Assembly (NCBI GenBank): GCA_963693365.1
Contig: CAVNZM010000006.1
Span: 7,047,264 to 7,111,263, forward strand
DNA: 64,000 nucleotides
Source: Amoebidium appalachense
Lineage: Eukaryota; Protista; Ichthyosporea
Direction: 5' to 3'
Shown piece by piece: positions 1,489 to 59,816 of the stretch. A program made the position numbers and the translations under genes. The notes beneath the pieces were generated by a model, which worked only from the letters and a program-made list of their open reading frames with translations, was not told where the DNA came from and made no database searches. The number at the start of each line of letters is the position of its first letter. Within the stretch, counting starts at the first letter, position 1.

Positions 1489-2095
1489 TGTCGTGGCAAC
1501 AAACAGAGTGTATATGAACTACTCTAACTATCTGCACGCTTAAAGGGGCTCGAAACTGTGTATACGTATAAACTTTTCTTTGAGTTGGGTGGGAAGCGAG
1601 CTTTTCGTGTTCTCAGAAGAACTTCCAAAAGCCCGCGACCCCGCGAGACACTTCACAGACACGCGGCCCACTGGCCAGACAAATACCACAGTGACATTCA
1701 GCCAATCACAACACTCCCTCCCCCACAGACTACACGCACTCCACACCATTGGCTACCGCCACCTCAGACACCCCTACAGCACTACAACACGTACACACGT
1801 TTACTCACAATACATATAAGCATACACACACGCGAGCAGGCAACATGGGTCTCGCCAAGCACACAGCAAGAAGCAATACAACATTTAACATGGAGAGTAC
1901 GCAGAGGCATGGTGCATGCACGCGCGCACCTTTAACAATCAGCCGCCGCCGCATCAGGTTCTCCCCATACCACTGATTAGTCTCCTCATACCCCACTTAG
2001 ACCCCGGCATCACTATGCAAGAAAACCCCCAAAATTCACTCACCAAAACACGAAATATAGAAGCAAACTAATACGAATCAGCTCAGCACATGACA
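1489..2095 (-). repeat. 3' LTR
   Basis: Direct repeat of 3588-4194, preceded on the minus strand by a polypurine tract. Confidence 0.93.
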
Positions 2096-3083
2096 ACTCC
2101 CCCCTCGCACAGAAAATAACTGAGTTCCACCTCAGTAAAAACTACCTAAAAACAAAATAAAGTTATGTGCTGAGCGACTACAACTACCGCTACCCATGCA
2201 GGAAGCAACATTTAACATATAACATAAAACATATACATGCATCCACACACCACCCCACCATGGTTAATACCCAACCCAACCCCAAAACAAGGATAATTAT
2301 GAACCGCCACTGACGTTGCCCTGTAGATGCACCTCTGCCCCCGTCCACAACCTGCACCCAAAACCCCATGCCCCTGGCACAATGTTATATCGAGTGGAAC
2401 ATAGCAACAGACATGATAACAGACACCATCCATACAACCACACTCAGCATGCCCCATCCACAAAGAATTCCTAACACAACCAAACATGCCATGACGAACA
2501 CCTCCAGACTCATGTGACGTACACCTTCAGACTCTCTTGCTGGCCATTCCTCTACCCGACAAAGACTCCTACTACGTAGGTCCCGGTGGTTTGGGAATGC
2601 CTCCGCCCCAACCGTGCCCTACACAGCGGTGTGTCTAAGGCCTACTGCTGCACTGGGCACCACAACACTACTCAACAACACTACGGGCAGCCACTCCAAA
2701 GGGCCTCAACACCAGGCCCAGGGCAGCCACTCCAAGGGGCCTCAGCACCAGGCCCTTTGACGACGGGGGTTCACAACAGTGGGGGCCTGCCACTGCCATG
2801 ACTACACTTCGACCCCCCCCCCAGCCCCCTCGTCAGAGGGCCGAGCTCCCAGACAGCAGCAGGACTTTCTATTCCACTAACCCTAACCACACACGTCGCC
2901 AACACAGGACTCATACACACGTCGAAAACGCCAGGCACCAGTAGAAAACTCAGCGAAATAAAAACACCACACAACTCCCATACAACAACAACTTGAACAA
3001 CCCAAGAGACGGCCTACCCCCTAATAAAACCTTCATACCAGCAACACGGTCACCGACGTCCCTGCCCCCAACGACGGGGCTGT

Positions 3084-3365
3084 TTACACCACGCGTTGCC
3101 CCCGCTCCTTGCAGTTGTCGCAGGTGCCTGGGAAAGAGCCTGGCGCCGGCTCTTGCTGTCCCGCGCAAAGACGCCAGCCTGGCCCATCTGTTATCCCGTT
3201 GTGGCCGTGGCTGGTAGGGCTGGTAGCGCCGTGGGGAGGGTGACCGCCGCCGGTCCCCTCTGAGGCCTCTGCTGGGCAAACGGCCCTGAGCTTGCTAAGC
3301 CACCTAGGGAGGTCAAGGTCCTTAGTGAGGACTAAGTCCCCTGTGATACTAGTCTTACTGCTCAT
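3084..3365 (-). pseudogene. Gag remnant of the LTR element
   Basis: MSSKTSITGDLVLTKDLDLPRWLSKL... followed by FPGTCDNCKERG, a truncated Copia-type FxGxCxxCxxxGH zinc knuckle. No protease, integrase or RT is seen. Confidence 0.6.
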
Positions 3366-3474
3366 GTTGCCTATGCCAACTGTGGCTAGCTGTAGCTGTG
3401 TGTGTGCGTATGTTTCTTCTACCTCTAACCGTTGAAAAAGTCCTAAGCCAAACCACTCATAACCGCTAGGCGTG

Positions 3475-3505
<31 letters not shown>

Positions 3506-3587
3506 AGGGGTGAAAGCAACAGCCCAGAAGGACAACAGTGCGTGTGCCCCCTCCCTGCAAAAAACTGCAGAGAAAGGGGGTGTAGCT

Positions 3588-4194
3588 TGTCGTATCTACA
3601 AACAGTGTGTATATGAACTACTCTAACTATCTGCACGCTTAAAGGGGCTCGAAACTGTGTATACGTATAAACTTTTCTTTGAGTTGGGTGGGAAGCGAGC
3701 TTTTCGTGTTCTCAGAAGAACTTCCAAAAGCCCGCGACCCCGCGAGACACTTCACAGACACGCGGCCCACTGGCCAGACAAATACCACAGTGACATTCAG
3801 CCAATCACAACACTCCCTCCCCCACAGACTACACGCACTCCACACCATTGGCTACCGCCACCTCAGACACCCCTACAGCACTACAACACGTACACACGTT
3901 TACTCACAATACATATAAGCATACACACACGCGAGCAGGCAACATGGGTCTCGCCAAGCACACAGCAAGAAGCAATACAACATTTAACATGGAGAGTACG
4001 CAGAGGCATGGTGCATGCACGCGCGCACCTTTAACAATCAGCCGCCGCCGCATCAGGTTCTCCCCATACCACTGATTAATCTCCTCATACCCCACTTAGA
4101 CCCCGGCATCACTATGCAAGAAAACCCCCGAAATTCACTCACCAAAACACGAAATATAGAAGCAAACTAATACGAATCAGCTCAGCACATGACA
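3588..4194 (-). repeat. 5' LTR
   Basis: Direct repeat of 1489-2095, upstream of the gag remnant on the minus strand. Confidence 0.93.
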
Positions 4195-7100
4195 AGCAGC
4201 CTGAAACTTTGCACACACATCAAACACACCATGGCCTACAACATTATACTACCACGAAGTTTACAGCACACTCGCAACACACAATTTCACTCCAACGGGG
4301 CTATCTAATTCTCCTGCAAAGAAAACACGTTTACAAACTTAATAATATATCCATATGGCATATCCCACAGAACATAAAAACAGCTACAGCTCCCTAAATA
4401 AAAATGCTAGCAGCCTGAAACTTTGCACACACATCAAACACACCATGGTCTACAGCATTATACTACCACGAAGTTTACAGCACACTCGCAACACACAATT
4501 TCACTCCAACGGGGCTATCTAATTCTCCTGCAAAAAAAACACGTTTACAAACTTAATATTAGTCTTATCATAGTGCCAACATCATCTTTACCAGCCCCAG
4601 CAAGGGGGGCATGAGCCGGTGTAGCGTGGGGCAATCTCACAACCAGGTACAGGTCTACCACTCCCTACCTGGTGTCGCGGAGGAACAAACCCTGCTGTGC
4701 GTGCCACTTGACGCAGCGCTGCAGCCCAGATAACTTGAGGGGCGACACAGGCACCCAAACAGTAAGAATAAAGGATTCCGGCTTGTACATACCGACAGCA
4801 GGAAACACTGAGGTGATCTCCACACACATTGTCCATTTGTCTTCACGGAAATACTTCTGGACATAGTCTCTAGAGGCACCCCCATGGCAAAAGCTGTGAG
4901 GGTTTAGGGTATGGAACCCATACTGTTTGAGGCCAAGGGGGTTGCATGGAGCTTGGCCCCCGGGTCATGGTAATATAAAGGCAACAGCTGCACAGAACTG
5001 GGGGGGCACCACGGAACCAGACAGGATGGTGTCGTATCCTAACATGTGTGTAATAAGAGACGCGGCACTCTTCTAAGTGAACACACACGGAAAGGAACGA
5101 ACGTGTACGAGAAAACTGCAAAGTTTCTTACTAGGCCTGACTCCGACGGGCAACCTGAGATCCAAACGGAACCAAGCTAAGTCACAACTGCGGCCATCAA
5201 GGCCGTGCCCCCAAAGATCATCATCACCAGGCCCCCCCACGATGCCACATTCCATACATTCCGATCTAATGAACTCTATCGTCGCCTGCACGAGCTAAGT
5301 CTATTGGCTCACTCTAATATACATATCTTTGTCTCTCCCCTCTCCCTTCCCCTAGTGGCACCGTGGAGTCTAAGTCTACATTTCATACTACCTCCCCCCC
5401 CCTCCCCCCTCTACTCCTTCCTGTACATCAAAATATATATATACACGTTTGGCAGATTATACTATCAGAACTTGCCAATATTTGCCAGGGCATCTTATTG
5501 CATTCCTAAGTCCTCCTAAGATCTATCCTATACACTATTTCTAATTCTAATATTGGTCGGCTGCTGCAGGCTGATGTGGTCCTGCCTGCGCCTGCAGAGA
5601 CACGATGCCCGCAGCTGTACAGCTGATCTTGAGGCCCCGGACTTGATCTTGATGACCTGTGGACCCGGGCCAACCCCGCCCCCCCCCCCCCCCCCCCCCC
5701 CCGCCCCCCCGGATCTTGATCTTTGACTTATGATGATCTGCTGAGACGGATTAGTATATGTCAGATGGCCAAGAGGGACAAACGGGCGATATGGACAAAC
5801 TGGTTTGGGCTGGCCTGGTGTCTGTCAGGCGGATGCGGCCCGTGCTGGCTGGCATGTGGTGGGGGATTAGGCCGTTAAACAAAACAAAGTCTGTGTGGAT
5901 AAGCATAAGCAGCTCATTCATAGGATGTTGAAAAAACACTCAAACCCTAGCAAAGCAGCATACCAAACAAGGGGCCGATTATTGAAGGCAAATCATGATG
6001 GCCAATGACGGGACCAATGAAAACAGAAGCGGGGGCGTCACGGTGGTCTATGCTGGAACAAGCCGATTCCAGCCAGTGCAAGCTCCGTTGTGCGGGTGCA
6101 GGTGCGGACCAAGACTTGGCAGGAAATGCCTGTTGCCTGCAGCTGTGTTAACACAGCGCGGATGCTGGCCATGCGACGGATCAATGTCGTAACATTAATC
6201 AAAACATTAATGACCAGGAGGTCGTCCAGAGTCTGCGAGGGACTTGGTTTTTGGTGGTGAGTGCCAGGAGCCCACGAATCCAGGTATTCATCAAGGCATC
6301 CCGGTAAGCCTTCCAGAGGTTGGGCTTTTTTTGGCCTGGTCAGCCACTGGCAGAAAACCGCGAGAATGAGACCATCTGCTGGTTTGTGGGCTGATGGTAG
6401 CCACTGCGATAAAAAACAAATGAATGTCAATGGCAAGCAACGCAGTCCAATCAAGGATCCACAGACGGTAGCGGAAGCCCCGGGCAGCAGTGTAGCACAC
6501 CTAAACCACCAAGACGCAGGAGCAGGGTTTCCCCCTTCAGAATGTTGATGCGATCAGAGCAACACCAACAACGGCTGATGTTAGCCTACTTTTGTCCACC
6601 ATGGCACCAACAGCTGCCAAGGTAGGGGCCGCTCCCAGGGGCGGGGCAGGGAGAGGGGGCGGGGGGGGAGGGGGTTGGGGAGGCTGGCGGGCCCGGGCTT
6701 GCCAAGTGGTTTACGCACAGGACCGGACAGCTGGAGGTAGTGGCCACAGCGGTTGCAGTAAGGCAGCACTTGGCCGGGAAAAGCATGGCTGGAAGCACCC
6801 GGACAGACCCATGGATGGCCATTGCACAACCCAACAAAGAAGCATCAGTGAAAACATGCTGCTAGCAAAACTGGATCGCATGCATTACTAGTTTCATTAC
6901 CAGGAACAAGGGGAGAACTCGGGCCTTCATGTTCAATGCACACTCAGTCGCCACACTAACATGATCACTTGGTAAGCGCTTCGCACCTCAAAGTTTCAGC
7001 TTTGAAGTGTTGCTACTGAATAATGCTCCGGAGTCCATTTAAGCTATTTTATTAGCACGCTCCATAATTTTCATACAACCAGCGTATGCGCCGAGCGGCT

Positions 7101-8800
7101 GCCAGGCTAAACCAAGAAGATTATATGCAAACAAATCCAGTGACCGTTTGCGTGCAGTGTGCCACAACGTTTCCTGGACACTCGGAGTTCGTTTGACAAT
7201 GTGTGCTCGTCACCGTGACGTTTGTGACCGTTTCCCATTGCAGGTTCACGTTGCGTACATCCTTCAAGTTGAGACTGTGAAGAAGGAGAATGTGTTTAAA
7301 CGTATTAAAGGCAAGATTGATGCCATCATGGCTTAACCTCTTTCCTGCAGTTCTGGAGATACGGATCGGCGCACCCATGTGCACGTTTAGTGAACAAGGC
7401 TTCTTGGGCTATCGTATCCAGATAGGACATGGCGCCTCCTCCACTTTCGCCTTGCCATTATATATTTATTACCAACTGGCCCGAAGGGCGCAACTGTGCG
7501 TGTTGCAGATGAGCCACCCCACCACACCACCACGGCAATACCAGCAACCACCCTCCCCTTGACCATCTGCACCCAGACACCGTGCACATCACCCACAAAC
7601 ATCACCTGTAAACAACCCAAAACTCCTCCAAAAAAACCACAAAAACAAAAGGCCTTTCAAAGTTTTCGAAGGCATCCCTTAGTATTCCAACACAGTCACC
7701 AGGCTCAGTCCCTGTGTCTATTGCACCCTTCACACATACACTAGGGCCTCCTCCCACCCACCTACCCTGAAGAATGAATATCACGACATCATGAGTCTTT
7801 CTGCACGAATGCACCCCTGCCCCTTATAAAGGGCTGAAATTGACAGGCCATGTGTGAAGTCCCTCCCCCCCCCCATCAGCAAACATCTCCCATTTCCCGT
7901 CTCAAACCACTCTGGGACATCCTAAACCCGTAACCCATCCTGAACTATACCCTTTATAACCGTTATTAGTTAGAGATGACTCCAAGCTATCCCTAACCCG
8001 TCCGGCTTTAGCAGGCGCTATTAAAGACATCTCTGTAAGTACGTCCTTATTGTACCTTTAGCATATCTGTAACCCGGCGAAACCCTATCCCGTGTTCCAT
8101 CTGTTTCCTCCCCGAAGCATATCTTAGAGCCGTCTTTGTTATGTTTTAAACAAATCTATAAAAAGACAATATTTATGAACTTTTACTAAACAGATATCCC
8201 CAGCATATCTGTAAGCTATCGGTCAGCCGTCTACAAGAGCGCTTTTCGATCACCAATATCCATCTTTAATACTACTTTTTGTAATTCAGACGAATATATA
8301 TGGCATACTTAACACCTCTTGAAGAATTTTGCAGAGATATATTACAGATATGTTGTGGTTAACCTAAATGTATCCTTAAAATGTAGTTATGTAATATGTT
8401 ATTTCAGTCTAACACGAGTTGCCGACTTTAGGACGTACTAAAAGCAACTCACCGATTGGCTAGGGATATTTTTATTGGTACATAGTGACACAAACAAGAT
8501 ATGCGTGAGACGTATTTACGTCATAATATAGATTCATCATCAATTGAGGAAAAGACACAATTAATATACACTTTAGACGGCTTTAGGACGGCCTAACGTT
8601 ATATATGGTCGCTCCCATAGATAGAATAATTATATATTCATAGTTCTGGTAAGAGCACCGGAAGATTTCTTGATGCAATTTTAAAGCCATCTTTCAGGAT
8701 GTTCTAAAAGTCACACTAAAAAGACCGTCGTCATCCTTAAAGTCATCTGTTGGATGGCTGGAGGATGTCGTGATGATATCTTAAACCCCCACCTCCCACC

Positions 8801-34429: not shown

Positions 34430-36900
34430 ATGGGCACAACCAAGTCGCGCCACCGGCCACAGGCCCTCACTCAGCCCCAGCCTGCCAGCCATGACCAGCC
34501 TGCCACACTGCCCAACCCCCCGCTACTCGCTGCGCACACAGACTTTGCGCCACCCTCGCCTAACCCTGTCGCAGGCACGCAACTGCGGGCCACAGGGCCA
34601 GGGTGTGTGTACGTGGCGCTGTTCGACTATGCCGGGCAGGAGGGGGACCTTTCGTTCCGCAAAGACGACGAGTTTGAGGTTGTGGCCGCGCCTGAGGCGG
34701 ACTGGTGGCTGGCGCGGTCGCTGCGCACGGGCCAGCAGGGCTACGTGCCCAGCAACTTCCTGGTGCCGCACACAGCCTTCAGCACCGAGCCGTGGTTCCA
34801 TGGGGAGCTGGGCCGGGCCGAGTGCGAGCGGCTGCTGCTGCGGTTCAACAAGATAGGCGCTTACCTGGTGCGCCAGTCCAGCAGCCAGCACCCCTACACG
34901 CTGTCTGTGCGCGACCAGTATGACGCCGTCAAGCACTATGCCGTGCGCACAGGCCCTGAGGGCGACTGGTTCCTCAGCCCCACACGAAGGTTCAAAGGGC
35001 TGGCGCAGCTGGTGGCGTTCTACAGCCAGTGCCCTGAGGGCCTGTGCACACGCCTGACCGTGCCCTGCCCAAAGGCCGCACCATACCTGACCGACGTGTC
35101 CCATGCCACCAGAGACAACTACGAGATACCGCGGTCGGCAATAAGGTCCGTGTGCTTGGCTGGGTTGAACCCCCGTAGTGGTATCGGGTGCATAGTTGTG
35201 TTATGAGGTGCTTGCCCACCGCTGTTCTCTAATGGTTGCATGACTTGCACTAACACTGTTATCAGTTCTGTATACCGCTCGTATCAACCTAGCCCTCTCT
35301 TTCCCACTTCCCCAGTCTCCCGATCACGTCATTGAGAGCATTAGCTGCAGTCTCCATATCGTAACCTTGAGGATCGGCATTCACCCATTGCGGTTTACGA
35401 TCCGATTGACTATTGAAATGGGTACATGCGTCCATCCGTACATACAAAAATACGCACGCGCACGCACACAAACACAGGCACACACACACACACTGTATGT
35501 ATAATAAATGTATATCATAGTGTGTTTGTATATAGAAATGTATGCGATATGTAATCCTATGATGTATCTTGAAGTGTGTGGATATCTGCACACACTTACA
35601 GTATTACACATATGTAAGTACAGTACAACTGTATAAGTGTATCGATGTATGTGTTGCATATCTATGTCTGTGATACAGCCATGCATGCCTACTTGTGCCC
35701 CGGCAGTATGTGTCTATCTTTGTACATTTTGCTGCCCCTAATTGTTGTTGCAGGCTTGGGGCCAAGCTAGGGGAGGGCAACTTTGGTGCAGTGTACCGGG
35801 GCACGTTCAATGGGGTGACGGAGGTTGCCGTCAAGGAGCTCAAGCCCGGCACCATGGGCCAGGCCGAGTTCCTGCGTGAGGCGCAGCTGATGAAGCGCCT
35901 GCAGCACCGCCACCTGGTGCGCCTCTATGCCATCTGCACGGCCCAGGAACCAATGTACATCGTGCTGGAGTACATGGCCAGGGGCTCCCTGCTGGGCCTG
36001 CTGAGGGCTCAGGGCCAGGACTTCAACTGGCGGCAGAGGGCAGACATGTGTGCACAGGTGGCGGCAGGCATGGCTTACATGGAGGGCCAGCAGGTGCTGC
36101 ACAGGGACCTTGCAGCCAGGAATGTGCTGGTCAGCGAGCAGTGGCTGTGCAAGGTGGCTGACTTTGGCCTTGCACGCTGTCTGGCCGACCTGGACGGGGG
36201 GGAGGAGGTCTATGCGGCCAGAGAGGGCACACAGGTGGCCGTCAAGTGGACCGCCCCAGAGGCCCTCTTCTTCAACAAGTTCTCAACAAAATCCGACGTG
36301 TGGTCCTTCGGCATCCTCATGTGGGAGGTGGGTGGCCACACACCACAAGTGGAGCGCAAGGGTGGAAGGCTCTCCGCAAAGAGGGGGGGGGGGGGGGGGG
36401 GGAGGGGGGGGGGGAGGGGATGCGGGGGGGCTCAGCACAAGGAAATAGCCAAGAGCACAAAGGGACGACCACCAGTACCACAGTGTAGCAGAAACATAAA
36501 AGCAGACCTTATGGTCAGGGGTCCCGCCCGGGGAGGGAGGGAGGGAGGGAGGGGGGAGGGGGAGGGGGGGGGGAGAGGGGGAGGGGCCCCCGGGGGGGGG
36601 GGGGGGGGGGGGGGGGAGAGGCAACCTCCTTCGGAGTGTAAAAGCGTCACGGACGTTTGTTTGACTGCTGGGGGGGTGCAGATGGCCACACACGGGGCCA
36701 CGCCGTACGCAGGGCTAAGAAACAAGGAGACCATGGACGAGCTCCGAAAGGGCTATCGCCTGCCCAGACCCGACGGCTGCCCCCAAGACTACTGGCTGCT
36801 GGCTGCCGGCTGCTGGGCAGAGGCCCCCGACCAGCGCCCGGCCTTTGGCAGTCTGCAGGGCCAGCTGGAGGCCCTGTTTGATGCCCCCCGTGCAGCATAG
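34430..36900 (+). CDS. Src-family non-receptor tyrosine kinase (myristoylation-SH3-SH2-kinase), 3 exons (~34430-35145, 35754-36327, 36682-36900)
   Basis: MGTTKS start. SH3: ALFDY..DLSFRK..WW..GYVPSNF. SH2: WFHG..YLVRQS. Kinase: GEGNFG, VAVK, HRDLAARN, DFG, KWTAPE, SDVWSFG. GT-AG introns in phase. Confidence 0.95.
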
Positions 36901-45711: not shown

Positions 45712-46064
45712 ACCCCTTCCACTCCCCACCTGCCACACGCATGTCGCAGGCCAGGGCCATCTCCAGGCCCCCACCGAGTGCTGCCCCGTCCACAGCCGCA
45801 ATCGTCGGCATGGGCAGCGTCTGGGCACCCAACCGTCACTACACCATCCCAACCTCCCCCCCACCCCCCTCCCCATCCCCCCCCCCTGCATACCTCGAGC
45901 TCGCTGAAAGCACTGCGCAGTTGGTGCACAAAGGCGGCTACCTCGGGGGGACTCATCTTGGCTCGTTCCTGGGAGGCATGTCAGAACCGGCCCGAAAAAA
46001 GAGACACACGTGCCTGCGGGCATGCAGGGGCATGCAGACACAGACACACCAACGTGGTTGGTAT

Positions 46065-46107
<43 letters not shown>

Positions 46108-46141
46108 CGCGTGCGCGCGCACACACACACACCCACACACC

Positions 46142-46197
<56 letters not shown>

Positions 46198-47265
46198 TCC
46201 ACACCTTGAGGTCTGCCCCAGCACAGAAGACCCTCTCCACGGAGCTGCGGAGAATCACCACCCGCACAGACCTGCAGCCCAGTCAGCAGCCACACAGCCA
46301 CATAAATAACTTAGCAGCCCTAACCCCCAGGGGGGAGCAATGGCGGCAGGGGCCCAGGCCATTATGCCAGTCAAGAGACAAAGAGTCCTGATCAAAAGCT
46401 AAAGAACTTTTCAGGTAGTTTCTCCAATCACTTTAGACTTGCAGGTGTGTTTTCGTGGTGCATGTGTGCTTGTGTGGGGTCTGTGTATCTGTGTGTGTTT
46501 GTGTCTGTGTGTGTGTGTGCATGCGTGTGCGTGTGTGCATGTGTGTGTGTCACGGTGTGTGTGTGCGCGCCCATGCGTATGCGTGTGTGCGGTTGCCTGT
46601 GTCACCTTGGGCACCTATGCACCACCTCCACACTGTAGCTTTTAAACAAACCTCCGGCTCAAGAGCCGAAGTTGCTTCCCGATACCCACCCACATACATA
46701 CATAGGCCTTTCCTCCTTCTCCCCCCCCCCCCCCCCCCCAAATATACACACACAAGATACAATCTTTCCCGCTATCATTCCCCCCCCCCCCCCCCCCCCA
46801 ATAACGCCTCACTCCATCCCTCCTACCCCCCCCCCCCCCCCCCCCTTCCCCACACACACACACACACACACGTACGGGTCAAAGCGCAGGTCGTCCATAG
46901 CAGCTCTCAGCTGGCCCAGGAACTCCTTCCCGAGGGCATTTTTGGCCTCGGGCCTGTTGAGCGTCAGCACGGCCACCCCTGCAGCGCCCTGTCAGCGCCC
47001 CCTACCCCCTACCCCCCACCCCCTACCCAGCCACATACCTGCGTTGGCTGCGTCAAGCCGCTCAGACAGCACCTGTGTCTGGGCAGAGTGTCAGTCCCTC
47101 TACCCTCCATCCCTCCCTGCCTATGCACGTACACCCAGACGGACACTCACCTGGGCAGTGGCATAGCCGCGCCACACACAGCCTGCCTGGGGACATAGTC
47201 AGCAACTGCAAGGTGCACAGGGACACAGGCACACAGACACAGACACATGCACGCACACACGCGCG

Positions 47266-47359
<94 letters not shown>

Positions 47360-47365
47360 TACACA

Positions 47366-47401
<36 letters not shown>

Positions 47402-47502
47402 CCCACAAGCAAACAAGGAAGCACAGATGTCAAAATGAACACAGGCTAGCATGCACACATATGCGCACACGCACACACGCGCGCGCACAAGAGATTGAGA
47501 GG

Positions 47503-47535
<33 letters not shown>

Positions 47536-47887
47536 GGGGGGGGGGGGAGAGAGAGAGAGAGAGAGAGTGTGTGTGTGTGTGTGTGTGTGCGTGTACACAA
47601 GCACGCTCTTGCACCAGCACCACCACGACTTCAGATGGGTAAGCACAGGCACGCGCGTACACACTAGCACACATGCGCGCACGCAAATAGACTCACCTAA
47701 ATAGACTGACACACAAATAAATGCACTGCGCACGCACACCAATACTCACGAACACACGCACCCTGCTGGCCAGAGAGAAGGCATAGAGGGACACGGGCAC
47801 CAGCTACAAGCAGACACGTACCAAGTTGACTTTGGCAGCGGCACGCACTGTGCGGGCAGCAGGCCGCAGGAGGGTCAGCACGGACAT
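43329..47887 (-). CDS. AUH: Methylglutaconyl-CoA hydratase (crotonase family), mitochondrial, multi-exon
   Basis: Presequence-like [19 protein letters not shown], then [116 protein letters not shown]. The small N-terminal exons are uncertain. Confidence 0.92.
45049..45360 (-). repeat. 23/24-bp alternating tandem repeat resembling the adjacent 3' splice site
   Basis: Plus-strand units gcactctgcccccatgaaactga / gcactctgcccccattaaacctaa. On the minus strand each ends ...atggggcag, like the true acceptor. Confidence 0.85.
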
Positions 47888-48586
47888 GTTGGCGGTGGGG
47901 TGGTGGCGCAGGTGGGGGGAATGGGAGGCAGTGTGTGTATGAAAAAGTGTTGCACCTGTACTGCCAGTGACTGTTCAGCCTGCAAAAGTACAAATGACGA
48001 CCATGTTTTTTTTTTTTTCTTCTTTAGGGAAAACTTACCTACTATATATGGGCATGCAAAAGAACCTTATAGATCCCCAAATTTCACAGTTTCCCCTTTT
48101 CTCGATTTCACTCTTATTCGCTGTAAATTGGTTACAAAGAACGCTGTTTTTGTTCATTAATGTGTAGTTTTTTACCTATTAAATACTATATAAAATTTCA
48201 TGTTTCTATATCTAGTTTGTAATAGAATAGAGACTAGTTCTTTTATGTGTTTACTGCAATAACTGCATTTGATGGCTTTTAGAAATGCAGATTTGCCCGA
48301 AACTCTACTGATCTAAGGGGTACTGCCTGTTCCCGCGCTTGCGATTAATGCACCAATCAGCATTTATCAGCGTAGCCTTATCTGCCCAATAGCCGGCAGC
48401 CAGGCTCGGTGCCAGTGCCCAGCCCGGCAGCGAGCTTGCACACCACTTTCTCGGCGATCGGATCAAAAATGGGACCAAGACCCATTTTTTTGATCATGCG
48501 CACGCCAGCGGCAGTCTAGTTTTTTTTTTTTTTTTGCGACACTTTTATGAACGTACACTGCAAAAACACGTTCGTGTCTTAATAAA

Positions 48587-50678
48587 ATGGGTGTCGATGA
48601 CTTCTGGAGGTGTTGTGTTGACTATGAGTACTGTTCTGCGCGCCGTAGTGTAGTTGCGAAGGAGGAACTGAAGAGCTCTCGGGTGGGAATAGACACATCC
48701 AACCCCCTGTTACAGTACGCTGTTTGCACAGGTTACTCGGTACCAATCTGTCTAGCACAAGCAGGGATAGAAGCACTACCTGAAAAAGTAGTAACTGACA
48801 GAGTGACAACTGTTGCCAAAAAGCTCCAGACTATTACGGTTGCGACCATCGTTCCTTTTTGTGTTTTTGATGGAAAGAAACTGCCCGGTAAAACGAGAAG
48901 GAATAGAGATGAAGAAAAGGCAAGCAATCTACGCCTCGGCGTGGAAAGTTACAAAGCAGACAAAGAAAGGAATAAAAATCAGTACACGAAACATTTCAAA
49001 GCCGCCCTTTCCATACCAGACAAAGTGACAGCTGCCGTAATTGCGTACCTGAGGGCCAAAGGGTACAACTACGTGGTGGCCCCCTTACGAGGCCGACTCG
49101 CAGCTTTTGTATTCGCAGAAAACAGGAACGATCGAATACATTTGTTCGCTAGAGAGCGATATGCTTATCGCAGGAGGGGATAAAGTGGTTGCTGCGTCTG
49201 GCATGCTGAGTGCATACAACGCTGCAAGCTACGGCACTATTGTGTTGCGGGAGGACCTGTTGGGCAACAACGACCCACCCCCCCCGGGTGCAGTTTAGCC
49301 TGCAGGGTTGGACGGATACTATGCTACGACGGTTTGGAGTACTGGCAGGGTGTGACTATTTCAAAATGAAAAACGTGGCAATAAAGAAGGCACACCAAGT
49401 TGTTTCGGCTCTGGGAGAGTCTGTCGCAGACACGGACAAAGTTCGGGAGTTTTTGGGTAGGGTACCTCAGGAAACCAATAGAGGAGAGTTTCAACAGTGA
49501 GTTCGAGCGCGCGGAATCTTGTTATTTGTACGGGTTCGCGTTTGACATGGAAAAACGAACGTTAGTGCGTTTGAATGCTGTACCAGACAGCTTTCCTGAG
49601 CACCTCCTGTCTGGCACTGGGGACGCCACGGTGTTCCAAAACGATGAGTATTTGTTACGGCACGTACAGGGGTTGATTAACCCTCACACAGGGGAGGACC
49701 GGCAGGCAGTTATGTCTGTTGAGCGCAGTATAGTAGTTCCAGACGCCTCGCAGGATGTGAATAAGGCGTTAAGGCAAGTTGGTCTCCCTGCAGACGGATG
49801 GGAGTATGGTGAGAGGCGGCTACATGGAAAGATTCCCCCAGTTAGTATGGAAACAATCGTTGACTACTTGTATAGGGATGAGTTGCGCCGGGGAGAGGTG
49901 GTGAACGAGAAGGCAGCAATGTTGCGGTGGCTGAAGGAGGAGAGGCGGAGTCTTTCTCACGACCGGCTGGATACTTTTGGGTTTCACTACGGCAGTATTG
50001 AAAACGAGAGAGAGGTGGGTGAAGGAGCGGAAAAGAAGAAACAGAGATTGCAAGGTATTAGGCTGAATATGCTACGTAGCATGGAAACGGGGCACCACAT
50101 CGTTTTTGTGTCGTTTTGGGTAGAAGATGCAGTGCCTAGTTTTGAGGTGGCCAGTAATGCTATGTATTGTGGTGAAGTTAAGGAAATCAGCACGGCATAC
50201 TGCTCCTGCAAAGCTGGGGCCTCTCGTGACTGTGATCATGTTTGTGGTCTTCTTCACATCTTGCACATGATTGAGTTCCTTAACTCTGAAAAGCTATTGC
50301 CTTGTACAGCTGTTCGGAATAGCTGGTTGGACCCAGGTGGGCCACCCATAAGCAACACGCGGCCCTTGTCTGATCTTGATTTTGCAAAACCACTGCTTAC
50401 CGGGAAACAGGAGAAACGGGGCTGGGAGCGCGAGGGTGCTGAGTCTCTTAAACTAGAAGCACCAGCCGACAGTGCACATAGTTGAGGAACGGTTGGCTAA
50501 ACTGAAATCTCTGGGTGTGTCCACTATGTGTTTCAATCCAGTGGTTGCAGCACAGAAGCTAAGGGAGGAGAAAGAGAGGTTGAGCTGGGCGCAGAAATAT
50601 TGTATAACATGTTCATTCGTGGTGGCCAAGAGGGGGCTCAGTAGTAGCACTACCCTTGTGATGTATGAACTACAGTGA
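48587..50678 (+). CDS. Exonuclease-1-like (XPG/FEN1 family) nuclease fused to a SWIM zinc-finger module; intronless, ~4 frameshifts (pseudogene or assembly error)
   Basis: Joined across frames: MGVDDFW, GIDTS, VFDGKKLPGK..R, VVAPYEADSQL, ESDMLI, GCDY, IKKAH and the Exo1-type tail FERA..Y..FD...LVRLN..GLINPHT. Then CSCKAGASRDCDHVCGLL..PCT...W..P (SWIM). Shifts at ~49082, ~49285, ~49452 and ~50475. AATAAA at 50698. Confidence 0.85.
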
Positions 50679-50830
50679 CTTAAAACCCTCGGAGAGTAAT
50701 AAAGGATCAAAGCCACAAGCTGGCTTCAGTAGTGATGCTGCCGTGCACTGGCTATATCCCCCCCTCCTGACCCCGTTTCAGTGGTGCACATCTGTGGGCA
50801 GAAAGAGGGAGTTAAACCTTTAAGAGAGAT

Positions 50831-50862
<32 letters not shown>

Positions 50863-50873
50863 GTAGTGCGTGC

Positions 50874-50920
<47 letters not shown>

Positions 50921-51095
50921 CGCGCGTGTGGAGAGCCTGCAGAGATAGATAGGCTCTGTCTGTGGGTTCGTGTGGGTTTGGTTGGGGGGAGGGGGAGTAA
51001 GGCAAGTCATGCTTGACGAGCTATGCTTGGACACAGTGTACATGACACTTGCTTCACGAGCTATGCTTGGACACAGTGTACAAGTTTAGGCTTTA

Positions 51096-51457
51096 CTACT
51101 CGTCTTGTTTTAGGGGTGGCTGAAACCAGGTCAGCCTAGCACAAACATCAAAGATATCATCGAGCAAATACAACATAGAGATGGGGAAAGGACCCCTCAA
51201 TATCTTAAACTCTTTGATGCGCCTGATTGCACGCTCAATGTGAATACGAACTCTAGTCACCCTGCGGGTAACTTAAAGGCCTACTTGCTCTGCCGTGAAC
51301 TGTGCCTTATCCTTTTGTCTATTCTGCCTATTTTCTCAAACCACTGCTCTCGCAAAACCTGTCGTTTTGAGGAAGTAGCTTTATACTTGGGAATCCTTAC
51401 TGAACCTTGCCCTATTTTTTGGTTGCACCAGTTTGCGGCGCAAGAGCAGCCTGTCAT
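51096..51457 (-). pseudogene. Internally deleted ISL2EU transposase: THAP N-terminus joined to the DDE_Tnp_4 C-terminus
   Basis: From the ATG at 51457: MTGCSCAANWC..RIPK..RQVLREQWFEKIGR (THAP, truncated before its CxxH). After a junction near 51310, another frame reads KAQFTAEQV..TRRVTRVRIHIERAIRRIKEFKILRGPFPISMLYLLDDIFDVCARLTWFQPPLKQDE*, matching the Harbinger/ISL2EU C-terminal block with the third catalytic Glu. One in-frame stop lies just before TRRV. Confidence 0.88.
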
Positions 51458-51999
51458 TGGTACATACTGTGCCACAAACTACTTCTACTAAACGTGTTTA
51501 GCTCTGCAAAACAAATAACTACCAATTATAGAGGGGTAAGTGCCTAAAAAGTGTAGGAAACCCTGAAAAAACCGAGCGAGGTTTTCACGTTTTTCTTATC
51601 GGTTGGTTACCATAGGTGGTCTGATCGATCGGTTGGTCCCATTTTCGCGCCACCCGGCCCTCATATGATTGGAGAAAGTGGTCTATTGAAAGTGAGCCGC
51701 AATGCCGTTCTCTAAATGGGGTTTACACTAAATATCTAAAAGTCTGCAGAGCAGTTTAGAAACTGAATTATCGAGATCATAGATCGCAATTCTATTGGAT
51801 AAGAAATATTTAAGCGAGTTCCACGGACCAATCGTCTCATCCTAGACATCTGGAAGACCCCCCCCCCCCCCTCTTCCAGATGCGCTCATGTGGAAGAGGG
51901 TCGAAATCAATCTAGATTTGTGCAAACTTTAACATTTAATAAATCGATCGGATTGCGGAAATTTTATACGTAAATTTAACAATCTAGATAATTAGATCG

Positions 52000-52583
52000 C
52001 AGTAGGCCGTCGAATGTGGCTGGGCCTCCGGCAATGTCCACGCAATAAAAAGTGTGTAAACCCCAATTTAGATCAACGCGAAACGGCTCAGTAAAGCTTT
52101 TTTTCAAGAGAAACCCAAAGCACTGCTGGGTCCTGTGCCACGGTGGGGTGGGGCGTGTTCATGTTCATGATGATGCATTTTTCAGTGCCAGCTATGGCAG
52201 CCACCTGCTTGCAGGCTCCTGCTTGCTTGTCCAGCCTTCCACTGATACCGGCATGCAGCACACGATTATAGACGTGCACTTTGCTGCACTTTGCAGCATC
52301 GTGCTGGGCCACCCAGCCAGCTACATGCGCAAGGTCCACACGCTGAGTGGCACTCACAGGTGCCTGGGTGTTCATAAGTGCATTCGTGTTCTGCGCAAAA
52401 ATTATTTTTTTCAAAAACTCCTTCCTATTATACCGGCGGCCACCAGCCGGCCACCGCGCCTCAAGCGGCAGCCGGGAAGGGTACTTTGTTGGAGTAACTT
52501 GGGGAAGTTTATTAGTAGGGGGTTTACACACTTTTTATTGCGTGGACATTGCCGGAGGCCCAGCCACATTCGACGGCCTACTG
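52000..52583. mobile_element. MITE with perfect 65-bp TIRs
   Basis: 52000-52064 (CAGTAGGCCGTCGAATGTGG...GTAAACCCC) is the exact reverse complement of 52519-52583. Flanked by CG on both sides. Confidence 0.9.
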
Positions 52584-52679
52584 CGTTTTCCAGCACAGCC
52601 AATCAAATGCAGCCAGTGACATATGTACATGCTAGGCAACAATGAGCGCCATCGTAGGATCTGACACCCCTATTACATA

Positions 52680-53207
52680 TTATGGGTAAGCAGATGCTAG
52701 CATCGGTAGCTCCGACAGAAAGTTAAGGCACCGGATCACAATATCATACTGTGCAGCATTAATAAGGTGATCTAGGATAGTCATCTTAAAACGGATATAT
52801 TGAGGAAGAGATGAAGAAAAGAGAATAAAACCGCCAATAACCTCCGGTTCTAATACATTAGCTAACAGGTTGCATTTATTGATAGATATGCAGCCGCGAG
52901 TAAACCGCCCCCCACACATATTACACATACGAGCAGGAGACACCAGAAACCGATTACACCGCCAAGCCATAATCATCTTTGCGTTTTTACACCACACCAC
53001 ATTACGAATAAACGAATCTATGTATGAACGAGACTCTCTAACCGTATCCGCCATATAGGCTACTAGTAGTTGGTGTTTGTGCGGTCCTAACACCGGAAGG
53101 GACTCAACACGTAGAGTAAAAAGATATCTATCAGCCATAGACTTGAAACTATTCATATTCACACTATGATCTAGCCGTACCTCCGGGGGGGTCGCCAGCC
53201 ATTCCAC
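52680..53207 (-). CDS. Hypothetical intronless protein, 175 aa
   Basis: Non-repetitive ORF, more AT-rich than host exons, with a CxxC (CNMC). No family recognised. Confidence 0.4.
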   Translation of the reverse strand: MEWLATPPEVRLDHSVNMNSFKSMADRYLFTLRVESLPVLGPHKHQLLVAYMADTVRESRSYIDSFIRNVVWCKNAKMIMAWRCNRFLVSPARMCNMCGGRFTRGCISINKCNLLANVLEPEVIGGFILFSSSLPQYIRFKMTILDHLINAAQYDIVIRCLNFLSELPMLASAYP

Positions 53208-54051
53208 ATAGCGCTCGGCAATGGGCAGAGACGATGGGGAAGGGAAGAGGTACAGGGGCGAATCCGGCGGGGATGCGTGTAGCCGGAAGAGCGGGTGGTC
53301 CGGGGCACAAGCGGTTTATTAGTAAATTTTTCGTTTCGCGGGAAACCGATGCCCGGTTTTTCCGGAATAGCGCCAGCGATTTCCGCTGAAAATATCAAAA
53401 TCGACCAATTTGCGCGTCGATAGCGCGCAAGATTGCAGCATTCAGATCTTGCGGGGCGCAATAAATTTGGACCCCGCCGCCAAATCACATCCCGTACCTC
53501 GCCTTAAAGACACTCTGCATTACAACCAGGCACCAAGCTCGCGTAACTTTTCCTTTTCCTGTATGTAAACCCTGAACACTCTCCAACAGGTACAACACAA
53601 AGCCCAGGTTAGCTGGGTGCCATAACCATGGGCACGTGTTTGGCTGGATATATTGCAATATTTTTTTTTAAAAAAAATGTACAAAATACAACGCCCAAGT
53701 AAAACATCGTACACGTCTGACAAAAAAAATACTATAGGTAGTATGCAACTGTGCACAGTGGTGTGACAAAGATAGCGTATTCCACAAAATATCTACGTGC
53801 TATCACCTTGGGATATGGCCAGAGACACCTATGTCTTGCCGTGCTAGCACGTTGCAGGACTACGTAGCAGTTTCTCCATACAGCACGGGCAACGGCTACA
53901 TGAATGATGTGCAAATCCACACAGGGGCACTGGGTGGGAGGCAGTGCACGTGGCCTCCTTCTGCCCCTGCAGTGTCCATATATGGGCATACCAGTGCCCC
54001 TGAGCGTGCAGACACACTAACAGGCTGCACGTATTGGGTTGCCTTAACCCC

Positions 54052-55327
54052 CTACGTGCGGTGTTCTGTGCGTGGCTGCAGGGCCCACTGGCAGGCCAAT
54101 CCCACGGCATTGATCACCCCCAGAGTCACCACCAGCCGCCGGTGCACAGAGTTCTGCACACACGTGTCAGAGAGCCTCCTTGCCAACCCCCCTCCCCCCC
54201 CCCCCCCCCCCCCCCCTTCCCCTCTCCCTTCCCTTCGCTCCTCGCCACCTTCTTTCCGCAGAACACGCACCTTGTTCTCTGGTGGCAGCAGCAGCACGTG
54301 CAGCAGGGCCATCAGCAGCACTGCCACGTGCACGGCCATGACCAGTGCACGTGGTCTGCGGCCCACAAACACCACCACCAGCAGCAGCACACAGTTGAGG
54401 CCCTGGCTGAGGCCCAGCACCGTGTACTGCTGCACGAGATAGGCACGTAGGCCCCTGCAGTTGAGGGTCAGTGCCCTGGCCACGTGCTAAACGTGCTGGG
54501 TGGGGTATACATACGTAGATATACACTTGTGCGTGTGCGTGTGCGTGTGCGTGTGCGTGTGCGTGTGCGTGTGCGTGTGCGTGTGCGTGTGCGTGTGCGT
54601 GTGCGTGTGCGTGTGTAATATGTGTGTGTTTATAATAGTACTTTAACATCTTTTTATTTTATTTATTTTTTTTTGGTGGGGGAGGGGGGGAGAGGGGGGG
54701 TAGGTCACACACTGGGCATATGAGCAGGTGTCCAGGGCCTGACTGAGGGTCAGTCCAGGCGGCAGGTTGGCCACACGGGCGTTGCTGGTGCCGTCCAGCT
54801 GCCACGGCTCAGCCTGCGGCCACAATAGTGGAGGGTGTAGACACGCAATAAGGGGTGGTGGCAAGGTGGTAAGGGCAACCAGTCAGGCACCCCACAGTCA
54901 GAAAACCACAGATCTTTGCTCTCCACAGTCAGAAAACCACAGATCCACAAGCAAAGATTTGTGCTCAGGGTGCAAAAAGGCAAATCCTGCTGCTTGAACC
55001 CGCAAGACCGAACAGTGTGAAAGTAGGTGGGCTTTAATATGGCAGTCTCTGTGAGCACAGCACATGTCCCTTCCATGGCAACTCAGCGTTACGGTGTTTG
55101 ATGCAAAAGAAGACCAGGGAAGGGCGGCGGGAAGGGGGGGGGGGGGTGGGGGAGGGGGGGGGGGGGGGGGGGGAAGGGGGGGGCATCTGGAGCGCAGGTA
55201 AGGCTAAGGCGGTGCTTGCCTCTCCCCAGTAGAGGCCCAGCACAAGCAGGCCGCTGGCGCCCGACACAAACAGCGCCCCGTAGGACGCCCCCTTGCGGCG
55301 GCTGGTGCGGGGGGCGGGGCTGGCCAT
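54052..55327 (-). CDS. Hypothetical small multi-pass membrane protein, ~4 exons
   Basis: GC-rich exon blocks with host-like splice signals (first donor AG|gcaagc). Hydrophobic segments GALFVSGASGLLVLGLYW, LNCVLLLVVVFV, LVMAVHVAVLLMALLHVLLL and LVVTLGVINAVGLA. Confidence 0.6.
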
Positions 55328-57228: not shown

Positions 57229-59816
57229 CGCACATGCACTTTCTCACATGTATGTCTCAGGACCTGGGGACGCTGCAAAGGTTCTTCAAAAAGAACTACG
57301 ACGTCGACATTGGGGTTGTGGAGCAGGCCATCAAGGGGTTCAACTGGGGGGACCTGGAGGTTAAGGGCAACTTTGTGTCGTTTCTGGTGGACGGCAAGGT
57401 GGCCTTTGATGTGCCCATTAGTGAGGTCACACAGAGCTCCCTCAGTTCCAACAAGATGGAGGTGGCTGTGGAGTTTCAGCAGCCGCACGACAAGCCCGTA
57501 TGTGCAAACACGGGGGGGGAGGGGAGGGGGGGAAGGGAGGGAGGGAGGGGGGGGGAAGGGGAGGAAACGGGGCAGGGGGGGGGGGAGGGGGGGGGGGATG
57601 GAGGAGGGGGGAGAGGGAGGGGGGAGGAGAGCATGGTTGCTGAGTGGTGGTGTGCAGGGCAAGCACGAGATGCTTTATGAGATGCGATTCTTCTTCACCA
57701 AGGACCAGGAGAAGGAGGCTGCGGGGGAGGAGGATGAGGAGGGGGGGCTGCAGCTGTGGAGACACGGGCACAGGTGAGTGGAGGGTGGTGGCGGTGCGGG
57801 GGAGCAGGGGGGGGGGGGGGGGGGGGGGGGCACGTGTATGAAAGGGGGTCCAGGGACAGGTGGGCATGTGTGTGTGTGTGTGGGGGGGGGGGGGGAGGGG
57901 GGGGGGGAGAGAGGGAAGGCACGTGTTCTGGGGAGGGGGAGGGGGGGGGGGGAGGGGAGCGCACACATGCAGGAGGGACCTTAAGGCGACATGGACACGG
58001 GGAGGGGGGTGTCAGGAGATGCATATGACGGTGAGTGAAGGTGGGAGCGGTGGCGATGGGGTTGGCCCCCGGGGGGGGGAGGGGGGGGGGGGTAGACTGT
58101 AGGGATACAGGGGCAGAGAAGTCCTGGACAGTTGTGGTGGTGAAAGGGGGGGGCTGCATACAACACGGGTGGCAGGTGGGGGCAGTGGGGGCACAGGGTG
58201 TGTGCGGTGGGTCTAATCTCGGTACTGCAGCGGTTCCAAAAGCGGCTGTCTGAGCGCACAGACAAGAGCAGATTCAGCGGCGACTCGGTGGCCACATTCC
58301 CGGAGTTCCTCTTCCTCACCCCCAGGTAACTGCTGTGCCCTGTATTCCCCACTGTGCCGTGTATTCTCCACTGTGCCGTGTATTCTCCACTGTGCCCTGT
58401 ATTCCCCACTGTGCCCTGTATTCTCCACTGTGCCCTGTATTCCCCACTGTGCCCTGTATTCTCCACTGTGCCCTGTATTCTCCACTGTGCCCTGTATTCC
58501 CCACTGTGCCCTGTATTCCCCACTGTGCCCTGTATTCTCCACTGTGCCCTGTATTCTCCACTGTGCCCTGTATTCCCCACTGTGCCCTGTATTCTCCACT
58601 GTGCCCTGTATTCCCCACTGTGTCCTGTATTCCCCACTGTGCCCTGTATTCTCCACTGTGCCCTGTATTCTCCACTGTGCCCCGTATTCACCATCTACTG
58701 ACACACCCACAGAGGCAAGTACCAGCTGGAGTTCTTCCCCAAGTTTGTCAAGCTGCATGGGCCCACCCACAACTACAACGTTATGTACCAGCAGGTCCAG
58801 CGCATCTTCCTGCTGCCAAAGCCGGATGGCTTCTTCTATGCCATGGCCGTACGTGCACACAAAAGAAAAGGGGTGTTGGCTAATGATGGGGTGCTGACAC
58901 GGGGGTGTGTGCACAGCTGCAACTGGACCCGCCCGTGCGGCAGGGCCAGACCATGTACCCGTTTCTGATCGTACAGATCCCAAAGGACGAGGAGATCGAT
59001 CTGGAGTACAACATGACCCCGTACGTGTGTGTGTGGGGCGAGGGGAGGGGCGGGTGGGCGGGTGCGGGGGAGGGGGGGGGGGGGGGAGGGCAGAGAGAGG
59101 GGGGGGGGGGGGGGGGGGACCTTACATCTAGGGAAGGGGGATATTTAATTTGGTGGATGTGGTGTGCGTTAAACGAGCCGGGTGCATGCGGGTTGATATA
59201 GTAGTCGAGGGAAATACCCCCCCACCTCCCACCTCCCCCCCCCTCCCCCCCCCCCCACCTCGCCACCTTTTTAAGGGTGGGGGGGAGGGGAAGGGGGGGG
59301 GGGGGGGAAGACATGTGAGTCAGTGGGAAGGGGGGCTTTTGGGGAAGGGGGGAGGGGAGGGGGAGGGGGGCGCATGTGGGACATTAAAGTGGGGGGAGGG
59401 AAGGGGGCGGATGCATGTGGGGCAGTAAAGAAGGTTGGGGGGGTACACCAAATGAGCCAGTAAGGGGCAGAGGGGTAGAGTGGGAGAGAGGGAGCGGTAG
59501 AAGCAGGGGAAGGGGGAAGGGCAGGGGGGGGGGGGGAGGGGGGGGTTAGATGCGTTGGGTAATTTGGGATTGGAGCAGTAGCATCTGAGGTATGCGTGGA
59601 GATGAGAGGTGTGACACGTGGGTGCCTGGTGGGTGGGTGTTGACATGTGGGTGCAGGGAACAGCGGGAGGGCAAGTTTGAGGGCCGACTGACCGATGACA
59701 TGGTGAAGGGCCTGACCATACAGGCACTGCCAAAGCTACTAAAGGCACTAACAGGGAGGAAGGTCGTGCTGCCTGGTGACTTCAAAGCGTACGTGGAGGG
59801 GGGGGGGGGGGCGGGG

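Follow-up and report, generated by a model that had tools for sequence, protein, structure and literature searches.

ISL2EU transposons are defined by a THAP-HTH-DDE (HTH, helix-turn-helix) transposase, an open reading frame (ORF) encoding YqaJ, and AT target duplications, and the accessible text of the defining survey lists 25 families, all from animals (PMC4482050). A text search of its supplements yields 13 occurrences of YqaJ and 0 of XPG. In the ISL2EU group, the portions of the sources covered describe a target duplication of AT within A|AT|T and terminal inverted repeats (TIRs) that usually start with GG (PMC4482050; PMC4122938; PMC9179366). The window analysed here, the whole stretch of 64,000 nucleotides from contig CAVNZM010000006.1 of Amoebidium appalachense, contains at 48440-51684 an element with bipartite inverted ends and two convergent genes. 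With little room for doubt, this is an ISL2EU-type element, the second gene of which codes for an EXO1-like nuclease with a SWIM module fused to it. This had been proposed on the basis of the letters alone (the sequence-only reading), and is borne out by Pfam, the rank order of PDB matches, motifs and hhalign.

The second gene lies on the plus strand and begins with an ATG at 48587. Its first part (48587-49464) encodes an XPG/FEN1-family nuclease domain, recognised through Pfam and PDB searches, motifs and contigs from public runs. One-base breaks occur near 49080, 49278 and 49465, and XPG_N (E 0.023) and XPG_I (E 0.001) are each recognised in a frame of their own, both below the Pfam cut-offs. 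When the breaks are bridged with X, the motifs GID, FDG, PYEAD, ESD, GCDY, CxCxxGx4CxH and CTx5WxxP follow in that order. The XPG_N and XPG_I domains and the seven acidic active-site residues, the latter taken as the family state, place the protein in the XPG/FEN1 5' nuclease superfamily, and 5' to 3' exonuclease activity is predicted for the fusion protein. EXO1 is the top match in each of three PDB searches, with the window fragment, with the intact relative P0001 and with a two-sequence profile. Among solved structures, the first window nuclease fragment is closest to human EXO1 (E 0.024), and P0001 retrieves EXO1 (6e-13) ahead of FEN1 (1e-7) and Rad2/XPG (9e-4), an order that is identical with the profile. 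The nuclease tail and linker (49465-49790, plus strand) are collinear with P0001 in the alignment. This region had been described as an Exo1-specific tail; it does align with P0001, but the EXO1 matches in the PDB end before it, and the Exo1 label of the tail is putative.

The nuclease part is followed at 49790-50400 (plus strand) by an ISL2EU ORF2-type module ending in a SWIM zinc knuckle (CxCxxGx4CxH, CTx5WxxP). The motif and the homology to relatives uphold the SWIM assignment, but a Pfam match to SWIM is lacking in the window protein. The remainder (50401-50703, plus strand) comprises an unconserved tail, as judged from sequence, alignment and tblastn, and the AATAAA at 50698. YqaJ, which the sequence-only reading had failed to see between SWIM and the stop or AATAAA, was not found anywhere within the element, either by Pfam or with the YqaJ domains of two canonical ISL2EU loci as tblastn queries. 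Up to the stop at 50483 the gene comprises approximately 630 codons, rather than the approximately 690 first estimated; 695 codons are reached solely if a putative fourth shift near 50450 is assumed, which would place the stop at 50676. The contigs of runs X1 and X2 end at 50716 and 50735, just beyond the AATAAA, and those of X6 and X7 continue; these ends are a weak hint at most. Two AlphaFold models (pLDDT, the predicted local distance difference test, 42 and 39) are too poor for use.

Intact proteins of the same architecture are encoded elsewhere. When the C-terminal 366 residues were compared by HMMER with 1.84 billion representatives, six matches were returned. XPG_N, XPG_I and the module occur together in two of these (P0001, 656 aa; P0005, 780 aa), as well as in P0009, a cluster mate of P0005. 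P0003 and P0004 are members of the P0005 group that are shorter at the N terminus, P0002 and P0006 are fragments of the module, and none of the six contains YqaJ. The X-bridged window protein and P0001 align collinearly over residues 1-601 (26% identity, E 8e-44), and the active-site motifs are kept across proteins that are 26-29% identical. In the ESM Atlas, P0001 lies nearest to two clusters of eukaryotic XPG proteins, one of 658 aa (111 members; score 0.92) and one of 804 aa (55 members; 0.91), which are leads without alignment; diatoms are commonest among the 13 members with a phylum in the former, and chlorophytes occur among 3 in the latter. Word-indexed protein searches recovered no additional relatives, and scans of prokaryote genomes and of viral contigs neither a fusion nor a transposase locus, with two XPG-type loci in the viral contigs matching neither the module nor the transposase at E 0.05. 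In a module tree of nine rows, which has long branches and is not decisive, five fusion-type modules fall on one branch side (support 91/94, not starred).

Contigs from six runs, of 24 listed public runs, were aligned to the window element, and several decayed copies of the family are present in them. The short-read contigs follow the window copy gap-free across the frameshift breaks, and the frameshifts are therefore real. Homopolymer assembly errors as the cause of all breaks are ruled out by the same contigs, and the 49465 break lies outside any homopolymer run. Other copies are shorter by one base at 49080, 49278 and 49465 (all three in X13, two in X7). Since the breaks are missing from these copies, the family ancestrally had a single frame running through nuclease and SWIM module, and separate insertion of the two parts, which had been named as a finding that would undo the proposal, does not hold. 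The acidic motifs reported in the sequence-only reading are present in order, but its ESD does not represent the family: runs X13 and X7 contain a copy that reads DSD at this place (Asp for the Glu of ESD), and all seven acidic active-site positions were thus retained in the family. These other copies bear lesions of their own.

Three different flanks (window, X3 and X7) adjoin the left junction at 48439/48440, and two different flanks, both starting with ATTG, adjoin the right junction. The left junction of the window copy is single-copy, identical in X6 and X7, and found in X13 too. A deletion derivative joins 48765 to 51248 in two of four runs (X6 and X7), in agreement with a 63-letter loose end. 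The different flanks, deletion derivatives and decay together indicate a small family of elements that once moved and are now dead, and the window element is itself a dead, internally deleted, non-autonomous copy. Depth over the element is 1.3 to 4.4 times that of the unique flank, values that do not equal copy numbers. A further deletion derivative, at 49112-49851 and with a 9-base filler, occurs in runs X1, X6 and X7.

The transposase gene is on the minus strand. Its C-terminal piece (51099-51312), with RIHIER providing the last catalytic Glu, matches DDE_Tnp_4 at 51099-51272 (Pfam, E 2e-10). It shares 35-40% identity with a canonical ISL2EU transposase, and 40% in the alignment to that of the metagenomic element L002, with R-I-H-x-E-R kept; this comparison covers the last 58 residues alone and is not based on a tree. 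A deletion at 51312/51313 removes most of the transposase, including the HTH region, and joins the C-terminal piece to an N-terminal piece (51313-51457, minus strand); related copies in X1 and X2 (97% alike) continue with different sequence at 51313. The Cys/Pro/Trp pattern before the deletion may represent the N-terminal half of a THAP domain. The DDE_Tnp_4 half of the THAP plus DDE_Tnp_4 remnant originally described stands, but the THAP half has no profile match up to E 10 in the window and no PDB match. A 33-bp direct repeat, 97% identical (51010-51082), lies directly past the transposase stop, and a TG microsatellite, seen in repeat analysis, separates the 3' ends of both genes (50818-50930).

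The bipartite TIRs described at the outset are confirmed as two exact inverted blocks around the minus-strand DDE_Tnp_4 and plus-strand nuclease genes. The outer block is 11 nt long (48442-48452 and 51672-51682) and the inner block 12 nt (48466-48477 and 51634-51645), each occurring once per strand in the window; among random window pairs free of low complexity, at least two such inverted blocks were found in 7/5000 trials. The left TIR (48440-48477, plus strand) starts with AC, and the divergence of other copies begins exactly at 48439/48440. The right TIR (51634-51684, minus strand), delimited by the sequence, inverted-block comparison and run contigs, starts with AG and is followed by ATT. 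Loose ends in runs X2, X7 and X13, with different sequence after 48481 and before 48486, point to a likely deletion in the left subterminal region (48481-48486). A target duplication is absent in the window copy, in which the left flank ends with GC and the right flank starts with AT(T).

Canonical elements for comparison came from a metagenome scan, in which two loci out of 126 pattern matches, L001 and L002, proved to be SWIM-YqaJ elements. In both, the module precedes YqaJ and the transposase gene is convergent, with YqaJ scored in both as controls. The L002 element (1894-7399) is a canonical ISL2EU element with the SWIM module, YqaJ, PHD fingers and a further C-terminal domain, and a convergent THAP-HTH-DDE transposase. 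The window-type module is homologous to that of ISL2EU ORF2 (hhalign 96.8%, E 2e-10, 64 columns). It is N-terminal to YqaJ in L001 and L002, and C-terminal to the XPG domain in the window element. The sequence-only reading had suggested that an unrelated exonuclease replaced or supplemented YqaJ. An unrelated nuclease is indeed present and YqaJ is not, but the nuclease is on the opposite side of the module, and no in-place domain swap therefore took place. Complex prediction for the L002 transposase and its ORF2 module gave a score of 0.31, against a mark of 0.34.

DDE transposases carry out both excision and insertion. The lambda-exonuclease/YqaJ-type enzymes and EXO1 have unrelated folds, and each digests the 5' strand at a DNA end so that a 3' tail remains. 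What the two unrelated nucleases found on this module would share is 5' to 3' resection. In the favoured reading, the transposase would bind the bipartite ends and excise the element, and the SWIM module would bring the nuclease to the transposase or to the ends, by analogy with the Myb-like partner in Harbinger. Resection would then divert repair from end-joining to sister-chromatid copying, so that cut-and-paste would result in a net gain. The full account, of a dead two-gene ISL2EU-type copy whose EXO1-like nuclease-SWIM protein likely resected the donor break and favoured gap repair, has an even chance of being correct. The role assigned to the nuclease, namely donor-break resection favouring gap repair and net copy gain, is put slightly below even.

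A number of points weigh against this account. Hosts have their own EXO1, and the nuclease activity, binding and requirement in transposition are all predicted. The EXO1-class assignment is putative and follows search rank rather than a tree. The decay of the copies is near-neutral (10/32 substitutions among those listed are synonymous, against 23% expected), and the short side of the 48765-51248 joint is 28 letters only. P0001, P0005 and P0009 were covered as proteins, and transposase linkage is seen for none. The AT duplication is not seen, with none of three left flanks ending in AT (one is ambiguous by a base) and both right flanks (2/2) starting with ATT, in a check that covers filled junctions alone and no empty site, and in which later damage to the flanks is possible. 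Finally, Spy, the sister group of ISL2EU, has mostly a single ORF in the covered part of PMC4122938 and is reported active in that of PMC11304231, which argues against an obligatory resection step, and the nuclease need not be essential.

The same observations bear on three other explanations. It is conceivable, if clearly less probable than resection, that the two proteins form a two-subunit transposase, in which nicking and joining of the 3' ends would fall to the DDE enzyme, and removal of the non-transferred 5' strand or flap to its nuclease partner. In Tn7, TnsA does this for TnsB. FEN/EXO1-family enzymes cut 5' flaps, YqaJ and TnsA share the PD-(D/E)XK fold, the family keeps all seven acidic positions, and extra trimming could account for the lack of a duplication on the left side. 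However, lambda-exonuclease-type enzymes act on free duplex ends and not on flaps, and the single-ORF Spy elements, reported to be active, also speak against such a division of labour. Less probable again is that the partner function lies in the module, with the nuclease either benefiting the fitness of the element outside transposition, for example by destroying competing or excised DNA, or carried along as tolerated cargo. Accessory proteins do vary widely in the accessible descriptions of Kolobok (PMC9587614) and PHIS elements, where they include Myb and TET (PMC9179366, PMC12730594), with opposite-polarity nucleases included, but active-site motifs kept between such divergent proteins and the same module carrying two unrelated 5' nucleases weigh against this. 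A one-off chimera, formed by a host EXO1 retrocopy or separate insertion in a decayed ISL2EU element, is already largely refuted and highly improbable. The absence of introns from the gene, in a host rich in them, would suit it, as would the fact that transposase linkage is not seen in the relatives. However, intact collinear fusion proteins exist in other organisms, and the fusion is therefore not a one-off chimera; the refuting case of relatives with YqaJ and no Exo1 domain fails, as the intact relatives combine XPG with SWIM and lack YqaJ. The two Atlas clusters of similar length with XPG domains, the single frame in other copies and the grouping of the five fusion-type modules further oppose it.

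A sister lineage with an unrelated 5' nuclease on the ISL2EU module represents a natural substitution experiment, which suggests that degradation of the 5' strand is the activity under selection; the literature covered, in the parts accessible, contains no tested function for the YqaJ protein of ISL2EU. With this lineage, the accessory enzymes of DNA transposons in eukaryotes would come to include XPG/EXO1, ISL2EU-type elements would extend beyond animals, and some protist 'EXO1' paralog annotations would be transposon genes. A more far-reaching proposal appears unlikely, namely an undescribed, pan-eukaryotic PHIS lineage spanning holozoans, green algae and diatoms, with SWIM as a universal socket for either of two unrelated 5' nucleases in the transpososome, and with the first eukaryotic transposons that have a Tn7-like two-enzyme transposase or built-in resection.

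The neighbourhood of the element includes both host genes and repeats. An enoyl-CoA hydratase-family gene (Pfam ECH_1; 45956-47888, minus strand) lies to the left. A contig in run X1 ends at 48317, and the element may therefore lie approximately 120 bp upstream of the 5' end of this gene. A very high-copy repeat (51720-52620), with a perfect 67-bp inverted pair (51998-52064 and 52519-52585), lies to the right, and a related element copy in run X1 is flanked by the same repeat. Beside it, open frames at 52683-53315 (minus strand, 211 codons) and 53738-54442 (plus strand, 234 codons), without Pfam matches, possibly represent another mobile element. Elsewhere in the window are Src-family tyrosine kinase exons (35674-36897, plus strand; exon 35752-35925, E 7e-17), which identify the host as a holozoan, a near-identical duplicated segment of approximately 540 bp (1528-2068 and 3627-4167, 2.1 kb apart), and a tandem repeat with units of approximately 60 bp (57984-58694) next to an SSRP1-like exon (58702-58965).

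No paper describing an XPG/EXO1-SWIM transposon architecture was found in a search that stopped short of Repbase, Dfam, Repbase Reports and most subscription papers, and, so far as the searchable literature shows, the element is an undescribed variant. ISL2EU text was likewise not found in the supplements of PMC12730594, the tree file of which is probably outside the searchable text. Among solved structures, human EXO1 (PDB 3qea, 5uzv) comes closest to the nuclease domain and shares its acidic active-site motifs, but it is a host repair gene without a SWIM module and matches over approximately 200 residues only. PIF/Harbinger elements, as far as the source was covered, share a related DDE_Tnp_4 transposase and a second ORF, the Harbinger product of which binds its own transposase (PMC9179366). 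However, this partner is a Myb/SANT DNA-binding protein rather than a nuclease, and the duplication is a 3-bp TWA; the window has no Pfam match to Myb/SANT, and the flanks of the element are inconsistent with a TWA duplication. Kolobok offers a parallel for the nuclease: in the covered text, the lineages KolobokD, E, P and H of one superfamily carry lineage-specific accessory nucleases, and the accessory proteins comprise DEDDh, lambda-exonuclease-like, His-Me, RecQ and KolX proteins, with nucleases of opposite polarity among them (PMC9587614). The transposase superfamily differs, however, and the accessory proteins named there include no XPG/FEN-family member (XPG, 0 occurrences); this precedent for accessory-nuclease exchange lowers the surprise of the window architecture. 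With ISL2EU itself the window element shares two ORFs, a DDE_Tnp_4 transposase with RIH(V/I)ER, the convergent layout (as in L001 and L002), short TIRs, ATT at the right flank and the ORF2 SWIM module, which is seen in L001 and L002 and is not named in the covered parts of the ISL2EU literature. It differs in having an XPG/EXO1-type nuclease before the module and neither YqaJ nor PHD fingers after it, in ends that begin with AC and AG instead of the usual GG, and in the lack of an AT duplication in the window copy. Given that YqaJ and the AT duplication are missing, it is best termed ISL2EU-type, rather than a member of ISL2EU.

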